DNA from: Rubripirellula sp.
GTDB taxonomy: Bacteria > Planctomycetota > Planctomycetia > Pirellulales > Pirellulaceae
Direction: 5' to 3'
Assembly: GCA_965216875.1 (NCBI GenBank)
Contig: OZ244207.1
Coordinates: 6,528,001 to 6,592,000 of the forward strand
Length of the DNA stretch: 64,000 bases
The notes beneath the pieces are model-generated. The model worked only from the letters and a program-made list of their open reading frames with translations, was not told the DNA's origin and made no database searches. Position 1 is the first letter of the stretch. Each line of letters opens with the position of its first letter. Of this stretch, positions 17,161 through 62,344 are shown piece after piece. The translations under genes and the position numbers were made by a program.

Positions 17161-17240
17161 AGCCAAGGTGTCCGGCGTAGAATGGAAGGAAGCGCTGCGA
17201 GGTGACAGTCTATTTGATCCGCTCGGTGAATGAGAGGAAG

Positions 17241-17400
17241 GAACCACGGATAGCACGGATGATTGCCGAGTGAGCGGCTTTGGCGTGAGGCCTCGGGCCC
17301 TGACCGCGCGCAGGTAGCGTGCAATGCCCGGCCGCTTACGCGATCACGGCTCAATTGAGTGGACTTGGGACGAACCACGGATAAAACGAATCACACGAAT
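17241..17400. repeat. REP-like hairpin element (family A, 17270-17369, minus orientation) flanked by GAACCACGGATA direct repeats and 9-mer CACG(G/A)AT units
   Basis: The reverse complement of 17270-17369 matches the elements at about 27807-27912 and 28039-28144. GAACCACGGATA occurs at 17241-17252 and 17372-17383. Confidence 0.85.
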
Positions 17401-17424
17401 GTTGGAAACGGGGATAGGAGCGGC

Positions 17425-18708
17425 ATGAACCGAAGGGACGACGACATCACCGCGCCACTGCTTGATCGCTTGCGCAAACTTGAGTGTCCGACCTCGTTTG
17501 CAGATGTGATTGGTGCGATGGAGGCGACCGATGCCATTTCTCCGATGCGCTCGTTCGAACGACTGGAGGAGGCACTGGAGCGTTTCCCAAGATTCATCGG
17601 CGAGTGTGTCCCACGGATTTGGCACTGGGCCGTCGAGGCGTCTTCGGAACTACCGGCCATCCCTTTGCTAGACGAGACAGGCGTCGTGACGTTGACGCAG
17701 CGCGAGTGTTTGATCGTCTTGTCGAACGCTTTTCTTTGTACCTATGCCGGCCGAGTGAGCGACGATTGTCTCAGCGGTGATCGTTTGCCGTCGATCAACT
17801 TCGACGAGCTTTACGGCGGTCATGGTTGGGGGAATGTCGAAGTTGAAAAGCTCATGATGTTGCTTTCGTACTTTGAACAGATGTGCCAGCGCGACGAAGC
17901 TGGTGACGCGCTGGATCGACGAATAGGATTCCATCGGCGACGTGCATCGGAATCGTCTACCGAGAATTGGGGCCAGTGCGAGCAATTGCTGAGACCCGTG
18001 AGCGTTGCCGAGCTTGGTGAATCGCTTGATGACGCCAAGTCGATGTATCGCGTCGATTTCGCGAATCGCATCATCGGTGGAGCGGCGATCGCGTTTGGCA
18101 ACGTGCAAGAAGAAATCATGTTCTGTGAATGCCCAGAAATGATCGTCGCACGATTGTTCTGCCCGGCGATGCGAGACGATGAAGCCATCGTGATCGTAGG
18201 CGCCGAACAATTCACTCAGCATTCAGGCTACGCCGGTTCATTGCGCTACGAAGGGCGTTATCGCGATCAATCCGAAATTTCTGACGGACAGCTTCAGTCT
18301 TACGTTGTCGCGCTCGATGCGCTCGATTTGCGAGGCCGAAATCCACAGAGCCAATACGACTCGTCACTTATCCAGCGGGATCTAACCAAAGCCTGGGCAG
18401 GTTTCGACGAACCGGGCACGCCAGAAGTGGTCGCGACAGGCAACTGGGGATGTGGCGTTTTCGGTGGCGATGCAGAGCTGAAGACTTTGATTCAATGGCT
18501 CGCGTGTAGTCGCGTCGGAAAAGCGATGGCCTACTTTCCGTATGATCATCGTGGCTTGGCTAAACGTCTCGGCCCACTTGCAAACGCACTGATCGAGCAA
18601 AGGGTGACGGTTGGCCAGTTGGCAAGGTTTCTGTTCCAAACGCTCGAGCCAAATGACGTCTTTGATCAAGTCGCCAGAGAATTTGGTATGCAGAATCTTA
18701 ATGGTTGA
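17425..18708 (+). CDS. Poly(ADP-ribose) glycohydrolase, canonical (eukaryote-like) PARG catalytic domain
   Basis: VDFANRIIGGAAIAFGNVQEEIMF, SGYA (tyrosine clasp), VALDAL and VATGNWGCGVFGGDAELK. The upstream helical subdomain has SNAFLCT, PSINF and EKLMMLLSYF. AGGAG RBS before ATG 17425. Confidence 0.9.
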   Translation: MNRRDDDITAPLLDRLRKLECPTSFADVIGAMEATDAISPMRSFERLEEALERFPRFIGECVPRIWHWAVEASSELPAIPLLDETGVVTLTQRECLIVLSNAFLCTYAGRVSDDCLSGDRLPSINFDELYGGHGWGNVEVEKLMMLLSYFEQMCQRDEAGDALDRRIGFHRRRASESSTENWGQCEQLLRPVSVAELGESLDDAKSMYRVDFANRIIGGAAIAFGNVQEEIMFCECPEMIVARLFCPAMRDDEAIVIVGAEQFTQHSGYAGSLRYEGRYRDQSEISDGQLQSYVVALDALDLRGRNPQSQYDSSLIQRDLTKAWAGFDEPGTPEVVATGNWGCGVFGGDAELKTLIQWLACSRVGKAMAYFPYDHRGLAKRLGPLANALIEQRVTVGQLARFLFQTLEPNDVFDQVAREFGMQNLNG

Positions 18709-18746
18709 TCTAGCTCTAAATGTCACGCACTGTTTCAACAGAAACT

Positions 18747-18846
18747 ACCCTCCCACTTGTGGGAGGGTCGGGCGCTAAAGCCCGGGGAGGGCCGTTTGAG
18801 GTGCCCCTCACCGGGCCTGAGAGCCCGACTCTCCCAAGGGAGAGTG
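18747..18846. repeat. REP-like multi-hairpin element (family B)
   Basis: ACCCTCCCAC-TT-GTGGGAGGGT hairpin followed by CGGGGAGGG...CCCGACTCTCCC..GGGAGAGTG. A close copy lies at 27465-27555. It sits between the convergent PARG and proB genes. Confidence 0.85.
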
Positions 18847-18877
18847 CCAGTCGGATTCATGGCATTTTGAGCATGAC

Positions 18878-20041
18878 CTACGCGTTTTCGATGAGTGTCA
18901 GGTTGTCTCGGTGGACGACGCTCTCGTAGGGTCGATGACCGAGGATGTCGGCGATCTTGTCACTTGGTTGTCCCAGGATCCGCTCGACTTCCGATGAAGG
19001 GTAGTTGCACAGACCACGGGCGAACTCCTGGCCGCTGGGTCCGCGAAGTGAAACCACACTGCCCTGTTGGAATTGGCCTTCGACGTTGGTGATGCCGATG
19101 GCTAACAGGCTTGAACCCTTTTCGCAGACCGCTTTGGTGGCACCGGCGTCGAGTGTCAAGTTGCCAGCGACTCTTGCGGCACTGCCGATCCAGCGGCGGC
19201 GACCACGAATTGATTTTTCGGGCGCAAGAAAGAGTGTGCCGACATCTTGGCAATCAAAAACTTTGTCGAGGACTTGGTCATCATGTCCCGGCGCGATGAT
19301 CGTCGGATGTCCATGTGAGGTCGCCACGCGGGCTGCCTCCAGTTTGCTTGCCATTCCCCCTTTGCTCATCCCTGACTTTTTGTCGATCGCCAGCGCGGTG
19401 ATGGAATCGTCAATCGATTCGACCAGAGGGATTCGTTTGCTTTGCGGTAATTCGGGTGATCCGTCGTACAACCCGTCAACATCGGAGAGGATGATCAACA
19501 ACGCTCCGCCAAGAAGCCCTGCGACTTGAGCGGCCAGGCGATCGTTGTCGCCAAAGGTGGTCATCAATTCTGAGACGGCGACGGAATCGTTTTCGTTGAC
19601 GATCGCTATTGAGTTGTAGGCGTGGATTTGCGTCAACGCGTTGCGAACGTTCAGGTAGCCGCTGCGTCGCCTCAGGTCTGAAGCGGTCAACAAGACTTGC
19701 GCGGCGTGTCGGCTATGTTTGGCAAAGGCCGTTTCGTAGGCTTGGATCAGATCGGTCTGGCCGACGGCCGCAACCGCTTGCAGTTGGGCGAGTCCCCCCG
19801 GGCGTCGATTGAGTCCTAGTTTGCCCATGCCGGCACCAACAGCACCGCTGCTGACCATCACCGTTTGCCGCCCCGAGTCGGCGATCCGACAAAGTTGGGC
19901 GGCCAGCAAGTCGACGCGCGCGCGATCAAGTTTGCCTTCCGGAGTGGTCAGGACACGCGTGCCCACTTTGACGACGACGCTTTGGGCGTTGTCGATCACC
20001 AAGCGGCGGGGATCGTCACTGGAGGGGGCAGACGCGTTCAT
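18878..20041 (-). CDS. proB: Glutamate 5-kinase with PUA domain
   Basis: VVVKVGT, VSSGAV, AAVGQ, IVNENDSV, FGDND, GGMASK and a C-terminal PUA domain (VVHRDNL). Confidence 0.95.
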   Translation of the reverse strand: MNASAPSSDDPRRLVIDNAQSVVVKVGTRVLTTPEGKLDRARVDLLAAQLCRIADSGRQTVMVSSGAVGAGMGKLGLNRRPGGLAQLQAVAAVGQTDLIQAYETAFAKHSRHAAQVLLTASDLRRRSGYLNVRNALTQIHAYNSIAIVNENDSVAVSELMTTFGDNDRLAAQVAGLLGGALLIILSDVDGLYDGSPELPQSKRIPLVESIDDSITALAIDKKSGMSKGGMASKLEAARVATSHGHPTIIAPGHDDQVLDKVFDCQDVGTLFLAPEKSIRGRRRWIGSAARVAGNLTLDAGATKAVCEKGSSLLAIGITNVEGQFQQGSVVSLRGPSGQEFARGLCNYPSSEVERILGQPSDKIADILGHRPYESVVHRDNLTLIENA

Positions 20042-26308: not shown

Positions 26309-27271
26309 CTACCATCCCAGGACATAGGCAAAAACCAGCGGCGCCACGATGGAGGCATCGCTTTGGATCATGAATTTGGGGGCTTCTGCCGAGAGTTTCT
26401 GCCAGGTGATTTTCTCGTTGGGGACCGCTCCGCTATAGCCGCCGTAGCTGGTGACCGCATCGCTGACTTGGCAAAAGTAGCTCCAGAGCGGAATCTCTTC
26501 TTTCAGGTCTTGGATCAACATCGGAACGACACAAACAGGAAAGTCGCCCGCGATCCCGCCGCCAATCTGGAAAAAACCGATTGGGTGATCGCTGCTCGTT
26601 TCGCGGTACCAAGAGGCCAAACGCTCCATCTGTTGCGTGCCCGTTGCGATCGCAGAATGGTTGGCGACAGTGCCGTCAATCACGCGCGCGGTAAAGATGT
26701 TTCCGAGCGTCGAATCTTCGAAACCAGGGACAAAGACAGGCACGCCAGCATCTTTGGCGGCGGCAACCCAGCTGTGCTCGCGTGGGATCTGGAAATGCGT
26801 GGCGAGGTCTTCGTCATCGAGAAGGTCGAACATGAAATCCGATGGCATTCGCTGCGATGAGCTGCTCGCGGCTTCCTGCCACAGCTTGGTGACGCGGTGC
26901 TCGATGTGGCGCATCACGGTTTCAGGTATGCAGGTGTCGGTGACTCGATTGAACCCTTGGTCGAGAAGAGCGACTTCATCTTCGGCTGACAGAGCACGCC
27001 AGTTTTCGACGATTCTGTATTCGTCGTGAGCAACCAGATTGAAGAGGTCCTCTTCCAGGTTGGCAGCAGTGCATGTGATCGCGTGGACTTTGCCCGCTCG
27101 GATCATTTCAGCCAGCGAAATGCCGAGCTCGCCGGTACTCATTGCCCCAGCGAGGGTGACCATCATCTTTCCCCCACCCTCAACAAGATCACGGTAGCTA
27201 CGAGCCGCAGCAACCAATTCGCGGGCATTGAAATGTCGAAAGTGAGTATCGAGGAATTCAGAGACGTTCAT
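26309..27271 (-). CDS. Deoxyhypusine synthase family protein (bacterial DHS-like; possible homospermidine synthase)
   Basis: TLAGAMST, TAANLEED, NRVTD, DSTLG, IGGG and YGGYSGAVPNEKITWQK (catalytic Lys retained). Confidence 0.88.
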   Translation of the reverse strand: MNVSEFLDTHFRHFNARELVAAARSYRDLVEGGGKMMVTLAGAMSTGELGISLAEMIRAGKVHAITCTAANLEEDLFNLVAHDEYRIVENWRALSAEDEVALLDQGFNRVTDTCIPETVMRHIEHRVTKLWQEAASSSSQRMPSDFMFDLLDDEDLATHFQIPREHSWVAAAKDAGVPVFVPGFEDSTLGNIFTARVIDGTVANHSAIATGTQQMERLASWYRETSSDHPIGFFQIGGGIAGDFPVCVVPMLIQDLKEEIPLWSYFCQVSDAVTSYGGYSGAVPNEKITWQKLSAEAPKFMIQSDASIVAPLVFAYVLGW

Positions 27272-27386
27272 CGTTTCGCGGCCAAAGAGGATCGGGAGGC
27301 CCAAAATGCTAGCGGATTCCCAGAAAAGGTGTGCAAGACTCATTTTCTCGCCAAGCACTTGCTGAGAATTTCAGCGTCCTTCGACA

Positions 27387-28345
27387 GGGGACAGGCACCT
27401 AGTGCTGGAGTTACCGTGCCATGAGGTGAAGTGTTTGCCCAGGTTCACGCGTGCTCCAACAATCACCCTCCCGCTTGCGGGAGGGTCGGACGCAAAGTCC
27501 GGGGAGGGAATAGCCCTCTCCGGGCCGTGGAGCCCGACTCTCCCAGGGGAGAGTGTTGAAATGCGCAGTTTCGAAGCCTAGTGGAAGCGAAATTGCAATC
27601 CGCAGCACTAGCAAGGGGACAGGCGGATCAACCCAGGGGACAGGCGCTTGGCATGAACCGGGCATGAACCGGGGACAGGCACCTGTTTACAGCCAGGTCC
27701 ACTTTCGACTTGCCATGGGGACAGGGACTTGCCATGGGGACAGGCACTCATCTAGGGGACAGGCATTTGTGCTACGAATTGCGTTTTCAGCAGCAGAAGT
27801 CTTTGCCCAAGTTCACACAACTGAGCCGCGATCGCGTAAGCGGCCGGGCCTTAGTCGCCTTCACACTCGCTGCGCGTCGGCAAGGGCCCGAGCCCTGACG
27901 GCCAGCGGCTCACGAGATGCTCTGTCCCCGCTCGGATCGTTTGGTGCCTGTCCCCCGCGCGGTCCGCTTCAACATCTCCGGATTCTGCTAGTGCTCTGTC
28001 CCCGTCAAAGGTGCACTTCCAGCAGCAGAAGTCTTTGCCCAAGTTCACACAATTGAGCCGCGATCGCGTAAGTGGCCGGGCCTTAGTCGCCTTCAAACTC
28101 GCTGCGCGTCGGCAAGGGCCCGAGGCCTGACAGCCAGCGGCTCACGAGATGCTCTGTCCCCGCTTGGATCGTTTGGTGCCTGTCCCCTGCGCGGTCCGCT
28201 TCAACATCTCCGGGTTCTGCCAGTGCTGTGTCCCCGCCAAAGGTGGCCCGATTGCCTTGCGCGGTGCCTGTCCCCTGTTTCCATCAGGTGCCTGTCCCCT
28301 GTTTGCGCCCTGTTTGCGCAGGTCTCGCGCTAGTGCTCTGTCCCC
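27387..28345. repeat. Composite intergenic repeat mosaic: about 16 GGGGACAG-type units, REP-like families A and B, and a 232-bp tandem duplication
   Basis: Forward GGGGACAG at 27387, 27615, 27636, 27671, 27717, 27736 and 27755. Nine reverse (T)GTCCCC-type copies between about 27920 and 28345. 27788-28013 is nearly identical to 28020-28245. Confidence 0.92.
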
Positions 28346-28778: not shown

Positions 28779-31700
28779 ATGGCAACCACGACCAAGCGTC
28801 GCCTTGAGCCCACTAGTGTTCGTCATTTCGGAACGGGACTCGGATCGTTCGAGCTACCCGACCTGACTGCGCTGCAAACTGTTTCTTATTCCGCTTTCCT
28901 TCAGGAAGAAGCCGATCCGAAAAAACGTAAGGATCATGGCTTGGAAAGCGTTCTCCGCGAGATTTTCCCGATCAGCAGCTATGACGGGAACACCACGCTT
29001 GAGTACCTGTACTACGAACTCGGCAAACCTCGCTATACCAGTCAAGAGTGCCGTCAGTTGCGTCTGACCTACGGTCGGCCACTGCGCATTTGGTTGCGAC
29101 TGAATCGCGAAGAACCACGCGAGGAAGAAGTCTATCTGGGTGACCTGCCGATCATGATGGGTGGCGGTGAGTTCATCATCAACGGTGCCGAGCGCGTCGT
29201 GGTGAGCCAGTTGCACCGAAGCCCCGGTGTCGACTTTGTTCTCGAGCAAGACACCACGACCGATCGCAAGCTGCCAAGTTGCCGCGTGATCCCAGAGCGT
29301 GGTTCGTGGATCGAAGTCAACGTCACCAAGAAAGACGCGCTGACCGTCCGCATCGACCAAAGCGGCAAGTTCGCAGCGACGACGTTGCTGCGGGCAATGG
29401 ATCCAAAGTTCTCGACCGACGCCGATCTGCTCAACGCGTTCTACGAAACCGAAACGCTCAAGATCAGTGGCGGTCGCAGCGCTGCGAAAATCGAAGGCAA
29501 GATCGCAGTCGATGACGTCGTTTACCCAAGTGACAGCGATCGCGCCGGCGAAATCATCGTCGAAGCAGGTCACAAGATCACCAAGGAGGTCGCCGAAACG
29601 ATCTGCACCGCTGGTGTCAAATCGATCGACGCAATGGAATCGCCAAAGATTCCTTTGATCTTCAACACGTTGGCTGAAGACAACACCGCCAGTCACGAAG
29701 AGGCTTTGCTGCGTATCTACCAACGCCTGCGTCCCGGTAACCCGCCGCAGCTTGAAAAAGCACGCACGCTGTTCACTGAAAAGTTCTACGACGAAAACCG
29801 TTACCGCCTCGGCAAGGTGGGTCGTTTCCGCTTGAACCGCAAACTCGATCTTGGCGTCAGCGAGTCCGAAATGACTCTGCGCCCCGACGACATGATCGCG
29901 GCGATTCGCTACTTGATCGATCTGTTCGACACCGAAAGTGGTGCCGAGATCGACGACATTGACCACTTGGGTAATCGTCGTCTGCGAACGATTGACGAAC
30001 TGGCTTGCGAAGAACTACGCAAAGGCTTCCTGAAGCTTCGTCGTACTGTCCAGGAACGAATGAGCATCAAAGATGCCCAGGACATGTCGCCTCGTACGCT
30101 CATCAACCCCAAGAGTGTTTCAGCAGCGATCGACTACTTCTTTGGTCGCGGTGAACTCTCGCAAGTGGTTGACCAAACGAACCCGCTTAGCCAGTTGACT
30201 CACGAGCGACGCCTGTCGGCTCTTGGTCCTGGTGGTTTGAACCGAAAGCGTGCGGGCTTTGAAGTTCGTGACGTTCACATTTCGCACTACGGTCGTATCT
30301 GTCCAATTGAGACGCCTGAAGGTACGAACATTGGTCTGATCAGTTCGCTGGCGATTTACGCCGGTGTTGATGATTACGGATTCTTGGTCACGCCCTACCG
30401 CAAAATCAAAGAAGGTAAGGTGACTGAAGAAACCGTGTGGCTGCGGGCCGACGAAGAGAGTGAGTCGTACGTCGCTCCGGCCGATACCGAAGTCAACAGC
30501 GGTGCACTGGTTGCCGGGCCAAACATGATCGCCCGTTTCCGCAGTGACTTCGAAATCGTTCAGCCAACCCAGGTCGACTACATGGACGTTGCTCCATCGC
30601 AAATGGTCGGCGTCTCGGCTGGTTTGATTCCGTTCCTCGAGCACGATGATGCCAACCGTGCGTTGATGGGATCGAACATGCAGCGGCAAGCTGTGCCACT
30701 GTTGGTTGCTGAACCACCGATCGTCGGCACCGGTATGGAACGCGAAGTTGCACGCAACAGTGCGATGGTCGTTCGTGCTCGCCGCGCTGGCAAAGTGACT
30801 TACTGTGACTCGACTCGCATCGAGATCGGCAGCGATCACTACGACCTGAAGAAGTACCAAGGTTTGAACGAGCGAACTTGTTTGAACCAGCGTCCGATCG
30901 TCAACGTTGGCGACAAGGTCGAAAAGAATCAAATCATCGCCGACGGTGCCGCAACGCAAAACGGTGAACTCGCACTCGGTCGAAACGTGTTGGTCGGCTT
31001 CATGTCGTTCGACGGTTTCAACTACGAGGATGCGATCATCATCAGCGAAGAGTTGGTTCGCAACGACACTTACACTTCGATTCACATCGAAGACTTTGAC
31101 GTCGAAATTCGCGAAACCAAACTCGGCCGCGAAGAGTTCACTCGCGACATTCCGAACGTTTCCGAAAAGGCTCTTCGTAACCTCGACGAGTCAGGGATCG
31201 TTCAAGTCGGTACCTACGTCAAGCCAGGCGATATCCTTGTTGGTAAGGTCAGCCCGAAGAGCAAGACTGAACTGACACCGGAAGAAAAACTGTTGCACGC
31301 GATCTTTGGTCGTGCCGGTGAAGACGTCAAAAACGATTCGCTTGAAGTGCCCTCGGGCATCGAAGGGATCGTCATCGACACCCAGAAGTTCTCTCGCCGC
31401 TTGAGCTTGTCCGAAGACGAGCGAAAGATCTTCGAGAAAGAACTCAAGGACATGGAGACCGAGGGCAACGCCGAAATCGCAAGCTGCTTCGAAGCACTTG
31501 TTCGCGATCTCGAAGCTGCTGCTGGAAGCAAGCTGAAGGACGCAACCGGCACTCCTCTGGCCGACGGCCAAGATCCTAAGTTCGTTGCCGAACGAGCGAC
31601 CGCTTTCCGACTTGATCACGTCCTTGACCAAATCAAGAGCGAAGACAAGAAGAAAGAGGTCGAGAAGGTTTACCAACAGCAATGGGGTAACGTCGAAACC

Positions 31701-32501
31701 GCAATCGATGTTCGCGACCGCAAGCTCAACAGCATGAAGCGTGGTGACGAGCTACGCAGCGGCGTGCTTCAAATGGTCAAGGTTTACATCGCTACCAAGC
31801 GTGTGATCAGCGTCGGTGACAAGATGGCTGGTCGTCACGGTAATAAGGGTGTGATCGCAAAGATTTTGCCGATCGAAGACATGCCCTTCCTGCCTGATGG
31901 CACGCCAATCCAAATCATGCTCAACCCACTTGGTGTTCCTAGCCGAATGAACGTGGGTCAGATTCTCGAGACTCACCTCGGTTGGGCCGGTGCGAAGCTT
32001 GGTTTCCAAGCACTCACCCCCGTCTTTGACGGTGCGAGCGAGTCGGACATCAACGCGGCATTGGCCGAAGCTGGTCTGCCATCGCACGGAAAGATCCGTC
32101 TGCGTGACGGACGCACCGGCGAGCCGATGGAGCAAGAAACAACGGTTGGTTACATCTACATGCTCAAGCTGCACCACCTCGTCGACGACAAGGTGCACGC
32201 ACGAAGCACTGGGCCTTACTCGTTGATCACCCAACAACCTCTTGGCGGTAAGGCTCGCTTCGGCGGCCAACGCTTCGGAGAGATGGAAGTTTGGGCACTC
32301 GAAGCATACGGTGCCGCTTACATCTTGCAGGAGCTGTTGACGGTCAAGAGCGACGACGTCGAAGGCCGAACCAAGATCTACGAGTCGATGGTCAAGGGAG
32401 AAAACACTCTCGAGGCCGGCACACCTGCCAGCTTCGACGTGTTGACCAACGAGATTCGTGGTCTGGCTTTGAACATGCAATTGGAAAAGCGACCGATCTA
32501 G
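28779..32501 (+). CDS. rpoB: DNA-directed RNA polymerase subunit beta
   Basis: [42 protein letters not shown] and [26 protein letters not shown]. Confidence 0.99.
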
Positions 32502-32516
32502 GTCGCCGACTCAAGA

Positions 32517-32547
32517 TGCGAGCCGAAAAATCATCATTCGGCTCGCA
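32517..32547. other. Perfect 11-bp stem-loop in the rpoB-rpoC spacer
   Basis: TGCGAGCCGAA-N9-TTCGGCTCGCA with no adjacent U-tract. Confidence 0.55.
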
Positions 32548-32729
32548 CCAAGCCTCGGCCATCCAAAGCCCGGGACGCGACTCGCCTCCCAAACCAACAT
32601 CAACCAAATCACTTCATTTCGAATGACCTCGACAAACGCCCTGGTCGTTCTTTTTTAACACGCCAAATAAAGTCTCAATCTCGGAATTGGTTCCTCAAAG
32701 GGACCTGACCGCTTAGGAGCATTCATAAC

Positions 32730-37160
<4,431 letters not shown>

Positions 37161-57390: not shown

Positions 57391-58845
57391 TTAAGCGATG
57401 ACGGGATGCATCAACTCGCCGTGGATGTCGGTCAACCTGAAGTCACGACCTTGGTACTTGTAGGTAAGTCGTTCGTGATCGATTCCCATCAGGTGCAGGA
57501 TTGTCGCGTTGAGGTCATGCACGTGATAGGGATCGGAAACGATGTTGTAGCAATAGTCGTCGGTTTCGCCGATGGTTTGACCACCTTTGACACCAGCGCC
57601 GGCCATCAGCATCGTGAAGCAACGCGGATGGTGATCGCGACCGTAGTTTGTTTCTGTCAGCGATCCTTGTGAATAGATCGTGCGTCCAAACTCACCGCCC
57701 CAAACGATAAGCGTGTCTTCGAGAAGCCCGCGTTGTTTGAGGTCTTTGAGGAGTGCTGCGGTTGCTTGGTCGGTGTCGTTGCACTGGCCCTTGAGCGCCT
57801 TGGGCAGTCCGGCATGGTGGTCCCAGCCCATGTGGAAAAGTTGCACGAAGCGGACATCGCGTTCGGCGAGTCGTCGGGCAAGCAAGCAGTTCGACGCATA
57901 ACTGCCAGTTCGCGTCACGTCGGGACCGTAAGCATCGAGCACATGTTGTGGCTCGTCCGAAACATCAAGCAAGTCAGGAACGCTCGACTGCATTCGGAAG
58001 GCCATTTCGTATTGGGCGATTCGAGCTTGGATTTCGGGGTCGCCGACTTCTTGCATTCGTTGATTGTTCAGCGCCGCAAGTCGATCGAGTGTGCTGCGAC
58101 GAAGTTCTGACGAGATGCCGGCTGGATTCGAAAGATAAAGAACGGCATCGCCCGTGTTTCGAAACTTCACACCTTGGTGTTTGGAAGGGACGAAACCGGA
58201 TCCCCACAGTCGGTCATAAAGCGGTTGGTCATTGGGACGGCCACTGCCAAACGATGTCAGCACGATGTAGGCAGGAAGGTCTTGATTCTCGCTGCCCAAT
58301 CCGTAGCTGACCCATGATCCTATGCTGGGGCGACCTGCGAGTTGGGAACCGGTTTGGAAGAAGGTGATCGCCGGGTCATGGTTGATCGCTTCGGTGTGCA
58401 GCGAACGGATCATGCACCATTCATCCGCAGTCGATGCAATGTTGGGAAGGAGTTCGCTGAACCACATTCCCGATTCGCCATGTTGATCAAAATTGAAGAT
58501 CGATGGAGCGACCGGAAACGATTTCTGCCCCGACGTCATCGTCGTTAGACGCTGACCTTGGCGAATCGAATCGGGAAGGTTCTCGCCGTGGCGATCCTTC
58601 ATCATCGGTTTGGGGTCAAACAAATCCATCTGCGACGGCGCACCCGATTGGAACAGATAGATGATGCGTTTGGCCTTAGGCGCATGATGTGGCAAGCCCG
58701 CCAGGACGTTCGATTCCGTGGCACCCGCGCTCTCGCCTCCGATCAAGGAGGCAAGTGCCGCAGCGCCGATGGCAGACGTGCCGCGTCGCATGAACAGACG
58801 ACGGTTGATGGCGTCTTGAAGAGCCAGTGTTTGGTTGGGATTCAT
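57391..58845 (-). CDS. DUF1501 domain protein (Tat-like leader)
   Basis: NRRLFMR leader, [45 protein letters not shown] and RLTDIHG. Confidence 0.92.
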
Positions 58846-58858
58846 TTTCTGGTTTCAA

Positions 58859-61800
58859 TCAATCTCGAGTCACAAACTCATCAAGGTTTAGCAATACGTT
58901 TGCCGTCACGGTGTACGCGGCCCACTCAGTCGGATCGAGTTTTTCGCTTGGCTGCCACTTTCCGATTTCGAGCAGCGTTTTCGCAGCGTCTGGGTTGGCC
59001 GTGAAGTGTTTTTGGTCGTCTTTGAGTCCGTGCTCGAGAAGCAACAGTTCATCGGCAGTAGGGTTTCGCGCGAGTACGGTTTGGAATGCAAACTTCAGTC
59101 GGTCGGTTGGCGTGTTGCCACCGTCGGTGAGCATTTTGGCGGCCAATCCACGTGCGGCTTCGACAAAGGTGATCTCATTAAGAAGTGACAGCGCCTGCAG
59201 CGGTGTGTTGGTTCGCGATCGCTTTACCGTACAAACCTCGCGGTTGGGGGCGTCAAACAGCAGCATCGTTGGTGGCGCCGCAGTTCGTTTCCAGATCGTG
59301 TACATGGTGCGGCGATAAAGTCCGTCGCCGGTATCCGCTTTGTAGTTTCGCAGGTTGCCGTAGACGCTGGTTTCATCCCAGACACCTTCGGGCATGTAGG
59401 GACGAACGCTCGGACCGCCAATTCTGTCGATCAAGAGTCCACTGGCAGCCAACGCCGAATCGCGAATCATTTCGCCAGATAATCGGAAGCGTGAGCCACG
59501 AGCGTGCAGCCGGTTGGCCGGATCTTTCTCGAGCAATTGTGGGGTGACGCTGGACGCTTGTTGGTATGTCGCACTCATCACCATCATTTTGTGCATCGCT
59601 TTCATGTCCCAGGCGGTTGCCGGTTTGCCTGCGACATCGGGCAGCGTGCTCGGCTCCATGAACTCAACGGCGAGCCAATCAAGAAGTTCGGGATGGCTGG
59701 GGAATTCCGCTTGCGATCCAAAGTTCTCGGAGGTCTTGACGATGCCAACGCCAAAGAAGTGTTCCCAGGCACGGTTGACCCAAACACGCGCGGTCAGCGG
59801 GTTGGACGGATCCACAATCCATCGCGCCAAGCCAAGTCGGTTCATCGGTTGCCCTTCGGGCATCGGTGGCAAGACTTGAGGGAGGGCGCGTCCGACCTTA
59901 TCGGCAGGCTTGTCGTATTCACCACGGGTTAGGACAAAGGCATCGCGAACCTTGCCCTCTTTCATCACCATGGTTGTGACGATGGTTTTGTCGATGTCAC
60001 TGATTTGTTTTTCGAGCTTCTCGACCGCAGCGCCTGCTTCGCGCAAAGGCTTGTCGACATTCTCACGATAGTAGCTGGCGAGTTGTTTGGTCTCTTCGTC
60101 GCTTCGCTCGGACGAGGGTTTGGCCAGGACCTGTTCGATGTCCCCGGGGAAACGCTTGCCGTCAAGATGGAGCGCGTCGGGTTCGGCGCCGCTGACCGCA
60201 AGACGAAAACGACCGATGTTGTGTCCCGAATAAGGTGATCGGTGCTTCATCGTGATCTGAATGGAAGCACCGCTGGGAAGCTCCATCGGTTCTTTGCATT
60301 TGAGCATCAACCGCCGAGGCGTCCGTTTGTCTTTGATATGGCCATCGATGGCCCAGCCCTGACGTTTCTGGTTGGATGGCTTTCCGGTGCGGAGTGATTC
60401 GGCTGTCCAGCCAGCTTGTTCGTAGTTGGCTTGAGCCGCGATGAAGTCGACTTGTTTTGATGCGTCGCCATCGGTGCCACGAATTTCAGCAGTGAGGCTC
60501 GTCAACACAACGTTGCCGTTTCCCGCTCGGCCGTAGCCTTTGTTTGCAAGGCGATCGTCGGGCAACAATTCAAGCATCACGCCGCTCAAGGTGCTCATGC
60601 CAAGCGGCGCGGTGACGGTGTAGTCATCGAACGCAGGATTCTTGCCTTTGACAAGTAGCGATCCGTCGTCGAGGACTTGAAAATCCGCGCCGCCGGTCGA
60701 CTTGGCAACGACTTTGCTCAGGTCTTGCCACGGCGTTGATTTCGATGGCGAGTCGGCAAGCACCTTCTTTTCCCAAGCAGCGAGTCGCTCAGGCAAATCA
60801 CTCGCCGTTTTCTTTTTGTCGTTCTTGGCGACCTTCAACAGGTCGCGAAGCTTGGTGAGCTTTTCGGTTTGCTCGAGCGTTGGCAGGTCGAGGACCGGTG
60901 GCGTGTTCTGCCCGTTCTTGCCATTGGGCGCGAGCACACCCGATTCTTCGACCGAGTTGAAAAAGGCAAAGAGTTGGTAGAACTCCTTTTGACTAATCGG
61001 GTCGTACTTGTGATCGTGACAGCGACAGCAGTTCAGCGTGAGACCGAGCCAAGTCAATCCCGTCGTTTCCACACGGTCGATCACCGTCTCGACAAACCAC
61101 TCATCGACAATCCGCCCCCCTTCTCCGTTGAGTCGATGATTGCGATTGAACCCGGTAGCAATGAGTTGATCCTGCGATGGGTTGTCGAGCATATCGCCGG
61201 CCAGTTGTTCAATGGTGAATTGATCAAAAGGGACGTTGCGATTGAGTGCTTCGATCAACCATTGCCGCCAAGCCCAAAGTTCTCGGCTGCCATCGCTTTG
61301 GAAGCCATTGCTGTCGGCGTACCTGGCCAGGTCGAGCCAGCGGTGCGCCATCTGTTCGCCGTACCGTGGGGACATCAGCAAACGATCGACCAGTTTTTCG
61401 TAGGCGTCTTCGGACGTGTCGTCCAAGAACTGTTGCACTTCATCGGGCGTTGGAGGAACACCGGTCAAGTCGAGCGTGACGCGGCGGATCAACGTTTGAC
61501 GATCTGCTTTGCCGGATGGTCTGAGTCCTTCGCGTTTGAGTCGGTCGTGAATGAAACGATCGATCGCACGATCGGACCAATGGGTTTCTTCAGGAAGGTT
61601 GGGACGAACCGGAGCGGCGAAAGCCCAGTGGCCATCGTAGGGTGCACCTTCAGCGATCCAACGTTTGAGCAACTCGATCTGCGCTTTCGTCAGTTGTTTT
61701 CCTGAGTCTTGCGGTGGCATCCGCTCAAACTCGTCGTCGGTGATCACACGAGCGATCAGCAGGCTGGCTTCGACATCGCCCGGGACGATCGCCGGTTCGC

Positions 61801-62014
61801 CCGAATCGGCTTCGGCAATCGCACGATCGCGCTCGTCCAGGCGCAAGCCTCCCTCTCGGTGCTCTTCATCGGGACCGTGACAGACGAAACAATTCTCTGA
61901 AAGGATCGGACGAATGTCGCGATTGAACGAAACGGGATCGTCGGCAGAGGCAATCGAGGCCAGCATCGCGACGGCAAGGCTTGCGCAAACCGAAGGAAAA
62001 CGTCGGTGTGACAT
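58859..62014 (-). CDS. Planctomycete cytochrome c / DUF1549 / DUF1553 protein
   Basis: FNRDIRPILSENCFVCHG, RRVTLDLTG, WLDLARYADSNG, CCRCHDHKYDP, HPELLDWLA, TNTPLQAL and NLDEF. Confidence 0.93.
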   Translation of the reverse strand: MSHRRFPSVCASLAVAMLASIASADDPVSFNRDIRPILSENCFVCHGPDEEHREGGLRLDERDRAIAEADSGEPAIVPGDVEASLLIARVITDDEFERMPPQDSGKQLTKAQIELLKRWIAEGAPYDGHWAFAAPVRPNLPEETHWSDRAIDRFIHDRLKREGLRPSGKADRQTLIRRVTLDLTGVPPTPDEVQQFLDDTSEDAYEKLVDRLLMSPRYGEQMAHRWLDLARYADSNGFQSDGSRELWAWRQWLIEALNRNVPFDQFTIEQLAGDMLDNPSQDQLIATGFNRNHRLNGEGGRIVDEWFVETVIDRVETTGLTWLGLTLNCCRCHDHKYDPISQKEFYQLFAFFNSVEESGVLAPNGKNGQNTPPVLDLPTLEQTEKLTKLRDLLKVAKNDKKKTASDLPERLAAWEKKVLADSPSKSTPWQDLSKVVAKSTGGADFQVLDDGSLLVKGKNPAFDDYTVTAPLGMSTLSGVMLELLPDDRLANKGYGRAGNGNVVLTSLTAEIRGTDGDASKQVDFIAAQANYEQAGWTAESLRTGKPSNQKRQGWAIDGHIKDKRTPRRLMLKCKEPMELPSGASIQITMKHRSPYSGHNIGRFRLAVSGAEPDALHLDGKRFPGDIEQVLAKPSSERSDEETKQLASYYRENVDKPLREAGAAVEKLEKQISDIDKTIVTTMVMKEGKVRDAFVLTRGEYDKPADKVGRALPQVLPPMPEGQPMNRLGLARWIVDPSNPLTARVWVNRAWEHFFGVGIVKTSENFGSQAEFPSHPELLDWLAVEFMEPSTLPDVAGKPATAWDMKAMHKMMVMSATYQQASSVTPQLLEKDPANRLHARGSRFRLSGEMIRDSALAASGLLIDRIGGPSVRPYMPEGVWDETSVYGNLRNYKADTGDGLYRRTMYTIWKRTAAPPTMLLFDAPNREVCTVKRSRTNTPLQALSLLNEITFVEAARGLAAKMLTDGGNTPTDRLKFAFQTVLARNPTADELLLLEHGLKDDQKHFTANPDAAKTLLEIGKWQPSEKLDPTEWAAYTVTANVLLNLDEFVTRD

Positions 62015-62344
62015 TTGCGAGGCAATCAGGAGGAAGGGAGGGGAGGCGAGTTTCGCAGCACGCTCGCGGAGTGGAAAGGATTGATTCCGGCTCAAGCGGG
62101 TGCTGCAGACGTGTACAGACCGGAACCGCATTTTAGTCGCTTCCGCCGATCCTGCCTGCCCTGGTTTGCTTGCACCCGGGGAGGATCGCTGCGTTCGATT
62201 CAATCGTCACAGCCGGAGGCATTCGGAGCGGATTGGCCCCCACTCACATAGGCCATTTCTCGGTGCGCGCGTTCGACCCGGGATTCATGAGCTAAACAAA
62301 AAGTAGGAAGTCTTTTCTACAAATATCTGAATCCAGATTCATTC

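Follow-up and report, generated by a model that had tools for sequence, protein, structure and literature searches.

What would a poly(ADP-ribose) glycohydrolase (PARG) of the eukaryotic type do in a planctomycete, and where would it have come from? This question is raised by a gene within a 64,000-nucleotide stretch of the chromosome of Rubripirellula sp. (contig OZ244207.1, positions 6,528,001 to 6,592,000 of the forward strand), hereafter referred to as the window. Judged by its sequence and predicted structure, the gene encodes a canonical, eukaryote-type PARG with a helical accessory domain. Because the same genome also has matching polymerase genes, it is probable that ADP-ribose signalling operates in this bacterium as a borrowed system. 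The reading favoured here, to which we assign a probability of roughly 55% on sequence and model evidence, is that the PARG would act as a cytoplasmic eraser of the poly(ADP-ribose) (PAR) chains made by the cell's own poly(ADP-ribose) polymerases (PARPs), within a horizontally assembled PAR system.

Evidence from domains, sequence and fold agrees that this is a canonical PARG standing alone in a bacterial chromosome, as a preliminary description had proposed. The Pfam model PARG_cat_C (PF05028) matched the window protein at 1.1e-64 and 218.3 bits (cut-off 26.3) over profile positions 2-205 of 207, and PARG_cat_N (PF20811), the helical accessory domain, matched at 2.5e-16 and 60.4 bits (cut-off 25.6). 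The bacterial-type PARG model PF10021 (DUF2263) gave no match to this protein at E-values up to 1, nor did any NCBIfam model match it, so that the suggested comparison of PF05028 with DUF2263 came out on the side of the canonical family. All 15 matches (15/15) in a sequence search of the PDB were PARGs, led by the fly (1.4e-57), followed by mouse, rat and human (about 1e-53; overall range 1e-57 to 1e-52), with Tetrahymena at 4e-31. An AlphaFold model built from a 34-sequence alignment was confident (predicted local distance difference test, pLDDT, 94; predicted template modelling score, pTM, 0.93) and overlays human PARG, accessory domain included. In Foldseek comparisons, template modelling scores (TMq) were 0.85-0.86 across about 435 columns against human, mouse and rat PARG, 0.76 against Tetrahymena PARG and 0.31-0.34 against the bacterial-type PARGs of Deinococcus radiodurans (5ZDC) and Thermomonospora curvata (3SIH). 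The gene and its parts are as follows.

17425..18708, + strand: PARG coding sequence, 427 amino acids from ATG, stop TGA at 18706-18708 (open reading frame (ORF) list and translation).
17359..18708, + strand: longer version of the ORF from an alternative in-frame GTG start, 449 amino acids.
17590..17901, + strand: helical accessory domain PARG_cat_N, residues 56-159 (PF20811; helical in the predicted model).
17962..18558, + strand: macrodomain-fold catalytic domain PARG_cat_C, residues 180-378 (PF05028; same span from the whole-genome search).
18076..18114, + strand: catalytic loop GGA-x7-QEE, G218-E230, with both glutamates (translation; aligns to GG...QEE of fly and mouse PARG).
18229..18231, + strand: Tyr269, at what we take to be the tyrosine-clasp position (aligns with the GY-motif Tyr of fly and mouse PARG).
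18436..18468, + strand: diphosphate-binding loop TGNWGCGVFGG, T338-G348, including Phe346 (translation).

The ATG at 17425 is preceded by GGAG at a distance of 6 nucleotides, and the starts of 33 aligned bacterial relatives fall near it. The motifs named in the preliminary description (SNAFLCT, PSINF, EKLMMLLSYF, DFAN, SGY and TGNWGCGVFGG) are all present in the translation; the loop spacing it gave, x6, has to be corrected to x7. Compared to the PARG signature given as GGG-X6-8-QEE in the text consulted of one review (PMC4245714), the window protein has a permitted spacing and both glutamates, with the third glycine replaced by alanine. Among 34 aligned bacterial relatives, D211-F212-A213, G218-G219, Q228-E229-E230, Y269, W341-G342-C343-G344, F346 and G348 are invariant (34/34), whereas at loop position 220 there are 30 sequences with Ala and 4 with Gly. 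Phe346 aligns with its counterparts in fly and mouse PARG and corresponds to the conserved phenylalanine that adjoins the distal ribose in the relevant passages of two reviews (PMC8120803, PMC6445106). The predicted enzyme is most likely catalytically competent, to judge by these conserved positions and by the model. Since its N-terminus is hydrophilic, with no 19-residue Kyte-Doolittle mean above 1.3, the protein looks cytoplasmic, in line with the earlier remark that no signal peptide is evident.

Compared to animal PARGs (human 4B1H/4A0D, mouse 4FC2, rat 3UEK, Drosophila 8ADJ), the window protein has the same architecture of helical accessory domain plus macrodomain and the same DFAN, GG..QEE, GY-clasp and GNWGCG-FGG elements, with TMq of 0.83-0.86 and identities of 28-30% in structural alignment or 32-37% by BLAST. 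However, the window protein, with its 427 amino acids, falls about 70-100 residues short of the animal catalytic domains that have been crystallised, lacks the long regulatory N-terminus of animal PARGs (full proteins of 500-750 amino acids), and carries alanine for the third loop glycine. Protist PARGs (Tetrahymena 4EPP; Entosiphon and Ploeotia; Willaertia) are similar to it in size and architecture, with Discoba the nearest named eukaryotes and Tetrahymena more distant on both of the measures given above. Bacterial-type PARGs (DUF2263/PF10021), in contrast, are single-domain proteins of about 280 amino acids that resemble it in their macrodomain core, in QEE chemistry and in having PAR as the substrate; according to the sections seen of PMC8120803 and PMC6445106, they have no helical accessory domain, and a ribose cap limits them to exo-activity. 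The same two reviews and PMC4245714, as far as their text was available, support the statement in the preliminary description that characterised bacterial PARGs are of this minimal type, and treat the canonical PARG as the eukaryotic form.

The distribution of the gene is patchy. The host genome is closed (a single 8.26-Mb contig, 99% completeness), and neither of the two same-genus genomes searched (0/2) had a full-length PARG_cat_C match. Among 60 relatives there were two other PARG_cat_C matches, one divergent 378-residue PARG-like ORF and one bacterial-type PARG, and of 401 genomes sampled across the phylum one, the window's own, had a full-length PARG_cat_C, with partial matches to the C-terminal half in four. 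A search of 5.8 billion proteins returned about 40 clusters of about 415 amino acids and 40-61% identity ahead of any named eukaryote, the first of which was Drosophila at 36% identity; a representative protein library held 889 proteins at E <=1e-30. A scan of 185,579 species' genomes, seeded with a multi-sequence alignment and requiring two exact motifs, yielded at least 29 PARG loci, all on contigs of metagenome-assembled genomes (MAGs); this count is a lower bound because the scan rests on those two motifs. A scan for relatives' genomes seeded with the window protein alone found none. The 29 loci are labelled Planctomycetia, Verrucomicrobia, Riflebacteria and, in many cases, Myxococcota, and the nearest named holder is a Planctomycetia MAG (G061). 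A contig of 5.4 Mb encodes a relative with 54% identity. With few exceptions the 33 relatives, whose identity to the window protein goes down to 38%, are of similar length and without N-terminal extensions. When the PARG was compared by tblastn with 50,697 phage records and 72,556 plasmids there was no match, and matches in IMG/VR were limited to homologues in giant-virus MAGs at 27-35% identity (L091-L100). Shorter PARG-like ORFs (310-383 amino acids; L004, L083-L086) match the C-terminal half of PARG_cat_C at E of about 1e-8 to 1e-12; they occur in 4 of 401 planctomycete genomes and in 6 of 301 from Myxococcota, and two of these six also encode a full-length PARG. The ORF in G018 (L004, G018:C749 456-1592) has HTGNWGCGAYGG, with QDE replacing QEE.

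Four trees bear on the origin of the gene (FastTree with 264 rows, IQ-TREE quick under LG+C20 with 76, FastTree with 88 and IQ-TREE quick with 59), all of them unrooted, without an outgroup, and with branch support given solely by the Shimodaira-Hasegawa-like approximate likelihood ratio test (SH-aLRT). The window PARG falls in a 12-row group (SH-aLRT 97) with sequences of Planctomycetia, Myxococcales, Riflebacteria and Verrucomicrobia, and this group is nested in a 16-row bacterial clade (SH-aLRT 94). That clade forms a clan (SH-aLRT 99) with the euglenids Ploeotia and Entosiphon, whose rows come from transcriptomes in which prey contamination is possible, and with an environmental group, for which a second homologue search recovered metagenome proteins alone besides the EukProt and Willaertia rows. 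The heterolobosean Willaertia joins next (SH-aLRT 94); it lies outside the 69-row clan in the 264-row FastTree and inside the clan in the 88-row and 59-row trees. A second bacterial group, made up entirely of Myxococcota-type MAGs (SH-aLRT 99), falls on the opposite side of the tree and adjoins Geminigera, Pelagodinium and a giant-virus MAG (SH-aLRT 98). The giant-virus sequence itself (L091) clusters with sequences from cryptophytes and dinoflagellates beside these Myxococcota PARGs, and since giant-virus MAGs hold canonical PARG homologues, giant viruses could carry PARG between hosts.

In these sequence trees, then, bacterial canonical PARGs form at least two separate lineages rather than one clade. 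The preliminary description had left the origin between a horizontally acquired and an ancient gene. The former is now favoured, because the gene is absent from the congeners searched, rare in the phylum and part of a four-phylum clade nested among Discoba, and an ancient bacterial gene is less favoured than transfer between domains because the bacterial PARGs do not group together, each lineage being nearest to different eukaryotes. The window PARG was thus probably acquired horizontally and its clade probably spread between bacterial phyla, as the sequences suggest; the direction of transfer is read from nesting, the trees having no outgroup. The gene also sits at a synteny break, because proB-purF is conserved (76% nucleotide identity in both congeners) while the DNA beyond proB differs among all three genomes. 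Its guanine-plus-cytosine content (0.548 versus 0.563 for the genome) and codon usage (distance at the 69th percentile of the genome background) are host-like; therefore, the transfer was not recent or the donor was of similar composition.

The genome also has candidate writers of PAR. Both of its PARP-domain (PF00644) genes fall outside the window, in agreement with the earlier remark that the window contains no PARP. PARP-A has 500 amino acids (WGR, PARP_reg and PARP domains) and a catalytic half closest to PARP4 (6.8e-53), then PARP2, while PARP-B has 577 amino acids (WGR and PARP domains), its nearest matches, PARP2 and PARP1, being weak. Both have His, Tyr and Glu at the positions aligned to PARP4/PARP2 that we take to make up the H-Y-E triad. 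In addition, the genome encodes four Macro matches, two ARHs, one Tpt1/KptA homologue and a bacterial-type PARG (PF10021, 2e-46; G000:C1:4459573-4460409) beside a Ser/Thr protein kinase gene. The whole-genome search recommended in the preliminary description therefore yielded two PARPs and no match to DarT (PF14487) or to ADPrib_exo_Tox (PF03496); these two nulls are weak evidence because the control genomes were silent as well. PADLOC gave no match for the window PARG, PARP-A, PARP-B, ARH or the bacterial-type PARG.

The distribution of PARPs among other holders of canonical PARG is in part consistent with a partnership. PF00644 was found in 13 of the 29 other PARG-holding genomes, compared to 3 of 60 relatives of the window genome and 0 of 14 controls. 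At least 10 of these 29 genomes have orthologues of PARP-A and of the Macro gene that follows it (60-65% and 54-69% identity, respectively), namely nine Myxococcota holders and the Planctomycetia MAG G061. In a sample of 301 Myxococcota genomes centred on G081, itself a PARG holder, three genomes had both full-length PARG and PARP-A (G081, G072, G074), one had PARG alone (G070), two had PARP-A alone (G706, G726) and 295 had neither, a strong association within this sample. Of the roles put forward in the preliminary description, that of partner to a PARP elsewhere in the genome is consequently the best supported, there being two PARPs, one of which co-occurs with canonical PARG in other genomes.

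Less expected than the PARG itself is that PARP-A and Macro form a module and that this module is linked to type XIII retron genes. The PARP-A locus lies outside the window at G000:C1:4670116-4679425, where PARP-A, Macro (beginning 75 bp after PARP-A), a HEAT/ARM gene, a SWIM gene and a reverse transcriptase (RT) gene follow one another on the same strand, and an ARH gene comes next on the opposite strand. PADLOC matches to four of these proteins were as follows.

Macro protein encoded after PARP-A: weak DarG match alone, 6.6e-4, 17 bits.
HEAT/ARM protein: HEAT-ARM_XIII 3e-64; WGR_XIII 8.5e-92.
SWIM protein: SWIM_XIII 4e-190.
Reverse transcriptase: RT_XIII 9e-167.

The type XIII gene set described in the passages seen of the retron survey of Mestre et al. 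2020 (PMC7736814) is the HEAT/ARM-SWIM-RT set observed here, and the text of that survey that was available mentions PARP zero times. The order PARP-A-Macro-HEAT(-SWIM-RT) was found, in full or in part, at five of 12 PARP-A loci (the window genome's own, G000, and G061, G215, G081 and G069), the partial cases being those in which the order is kept up to the end of the contig or locus; the remaining seven PARP-A-Macro loci had no HEAT, SWIM or RT genes inside the fetched range. An Rfam search across the PARP-A/retron locus found no RNA family, including no retron non-coding RNA (ncRNA). In a same-family genome in which no canonical PARG was found (G016; L060, G016:C77, 4692-9937), a PARP-B orthologue (56% identity) stands directly after SWIM (38%) and RT (51%) homologues; there, a second kind of PARP is joined to type XIII retron genes. 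The PARP-B of the window genome has no SWIM or RT neighbours within 10 kb.

Under the reading favoured here, PARP-A and/or PARP-B would modify themselves or other targets with chains of ADP-ribose, and the macrodomain cleft of the PARG would bind the end of such a chain. Its QEE glutamates would then cleave the ribose-ribose O-glycosidic bonds and release ADP-ribose, after which the protein-proximal ADP-ribose may be removed by the Macro protein encoded after PARP-A or by ARH. The PARG gene itself would have been acquired horizontally and since adapted to host codon usage.

Several observations weigh against this reading. The loop of the window PARG has GGA where animal PARGs have GGG, and GGG-loop variants are rated as being of uncertain function in the portion seen of PMC4245714. 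On the polymerase side, the nearest solved relative of PARP-A is PARP4, labelled a mono-ADP-ribosyltransferase by its depositors, and an H-Y-E triad is no proof of polymer synthesis. The canonical PARG is not the sole candidate eraser, because the genome also encodes a bacterial-type PARG. The genes are also far apart: the distance from the window PARG is 1.87 Mb for PARP-A and 6.3 Mb for PARP-B, a tblastn search reaching 8 kb from each of the 29 PARG loci found no PARP or Macro, and no PARG was found within about 9 kb of 20 PARP loci in other holders. The co-occurrence counts span related genomes and were partly ascertained from PARG holders; among the seven holders in or near the window's own PARG clade (G061-G067, all MAGs), G061 alone has a PARP match. 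Conversely, PARP-A orthologues occur without detectable canonical PARG in G215, G706 and G726; G215, which is 84% complete, has PARP-A, Macro, HEAT and PARP-B.

Other explanations are also conceivable. In the main rival reading, the PARG would serve immunity or repair by countering the ADP-ribosyltransferase (ART) toxins of competitors or phages, taking ADP-ribose off RNA 2'-OH groups or phosphorylated nucleic-acid ends independently of the host PARPs; this is possible but, on present evidence, unlikely. In the parts available of Lu et al. 2025 (PMC11833690), a bacterial-type PARG and human canonical PARG reverse the 2'-OH RNA ADP-ribosylation made by RhsP2, and PARGs are proposed as a defence against toxic ARTs. 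A stand-alone, patchily distributed and horizontally spread gene would suit such a role, as would the absence of a PARP match from six of the seven other holders near the window's clade and the presence of a Tpt1/KptA-type gene in the genome. However, the neighbours of the PARG are a GH2-like gene, proB and purF, with no cognate toxin, type VI secretion system effector or immunity island among them; PADLOC did not match the PARG; the lack of DarT and ADPrib_exo_Tox matches in the genome also points away from the idea, though weakly given the silent controls; and the association of the PARG with the PARP-A-Macro module would be left unexplained. A bolder variant is that the PARG resets a PARP-based anti-phage system in which PARP-A-Macro acts with the type XIII retron genes, by limiting or reversing the ADP-ribosylation that results, a doubtful proposal with a slim chance of being right. 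The contiguity of the five genes in the window genome, with their strong XIII scores in PADLOC, the recurrence of the order, whole or to the contig or locus end, in G061, G215, G081 and G069, and the SWIM-RT-PARP-B adjacency in G016 all speak for it. Set against these are the seven of 12 PARP-A-Macro loci without HEAT, SWIM or RT inside the fetched range, the lack of linkage between the PARG and the PARP-A/retron locus, the Rfam result for retron ncRNA and the absence of PARP from the text seen of the retron survey. A wider version, speculative and rather improbable, would see eukaryote-like PAR signalling at work in bacterial immunity. Here the PARP4-like WGR-PARP and Macro would supplement type XIII retrons as an effector or sensor, the WGR domain would sense the multicopy single-stranded DNA (msDNA) of the retron or phage DNA, and the unlinked PARG would be the reset; the set, having originated in protists or been exchanged with them, would then have travelled jointly between Myxococcota and Planctomycetota.

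Two further explanations are very improbable. That the PARG scavenges PAR from eukaryotic (e.g., algal) debris as a nutrient, as the preliminary description had also suggested, might be read from its glycoside-hydrolase-like adjoining genes; this role is disfavoured by the apparently cytoplasmic location of the protein, which has neither a signal peptide nor a membrane segment, by the lack of a transporter or operon context (the neighbours being on opposite strands), and by the 33 relatives of similar length in which N-terminal extensions are rare. It is just as hard to believe that an earlier transfer left behind no more than a relic, a protein that is decaying or can bind but not hydrolyse. 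The alanine in place of the third signature glycine and the absence of the gene from the congeners searched would fit a relic, but the ORF is intact, no catalytic position varies among the 34 sequences, whose identity goes down to 38%, codon usage is host-like and the confident model superposes on active PARGs. The eraser of PAR made by the cell's own PARPs remains the preferred reading of the window PARG.

The surroundings of the gene fit a core chromosomal location. The PARG gene is monocistronic, with flanking genes on opposite strands: the GH2-like gene upstream reads away from PARG, starting at 17256 on the minus strand, and proB (glutamate 5-kinase family; 20092 to 18878) converges on PARG and is followed by purF. 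The 169-bp gap 3' of the PARG stop contains one copy of a repeat of about 110 bp. The two flanking intervals are the following.

17257..17424, no strand: divergent intergenic region between the GH2-like gene (-) and PARG (+) (ORF layout).
18741..18860, no strand: copy of the interspersed genome repeat of about 110 bp, with a hairpin at 18747-18768, between the PARG stop and proB.

The repeat gave 169 blastn high-scoring pairs in its own genome and dozens in the congener G002, and a second copy lies in the window at 27465-27555. Promoter and terminator scans around PARG returned nothing above shuffle expectation, with no sigma-70-like sites in 17200-18900 compared to a shuffle mean of 0.6, and no neighbour family recurred in three or more loci of the window's PARG clade, ORF picking being unreliable in the high-GC Myxococcota PARG loci. 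Because rpoB and rpoC (28779-37160, +) lie 10 kb downstream, the PARG region is considered part of the core chromosome. Elsewhere in the window, a PSCyt1/PSCyt2/PSD1 protein and its DUF1501 partner (57391-62203, -) fit the planctomycete assignment, as does the fact that the nearest named PARG holder is a Planctomycetia MAG. An ORF at 26309-27358 (-) has a match (5e-40) to PF01916, deoxyhypusine synthase, which is known chiefly from eukaryotes and archaea. Among the public sequencing runs listed as containing sampled words there was no RNA run; half of these words occur in one DNA run with the label 'algae metagenome', on which no claim about habitat is built.

How new is such a gene? The novelty implied by the preliminary description was too high, for public annotations already label relatives as PARG and one sentence in the text seen of Lu et al. 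2025 (PMC11833690) mentions that canonical-type PARGs occur in bacteria. Bacterial canonical PARG is thus already known to occur, and the window PARG adds a well-placed example, being in a closed genome where the 29 scan loci are all on MAG contigs. Literature searches found no characterised bacterial canonical-type PARG, and full-text searches returned nothing on-topic for PARG together with PARP in Planctomycetes or for PARG together with ADP-ribose in myxobacteria. In the passages available of PMC8120803, bacterial PARPs are placed in six phyla, Planctomycetes not among them, and the WGR-PARP/PARG pairs of Herpetosiphon aurantiacus and Clostridioides difficile are active in vitro. Those pairs, as far as that source goes, use bacterial-type PARGs, whereas here the partner would be canonical and the catalytic domain of the PARP is nearest to PARP4.

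Two PARPs with the H-Y-E triad, both types of PARG, four macrodomains and two ARHs make up an unusually full ADP-ribose toolkit for this planctomycete, and because both PARG types are encoded in one genome they could be compared within one cell. The PARG trees add a case of gene exchange between protists and bacteria. The role of PAR metabolism in bacteria is still unsettled, and a concrete, testable hypothesis is provided by a conserved PARP-A-Macro module that repeatedly adjoins type XIII retron genes and co-occurs with canonical PARG.

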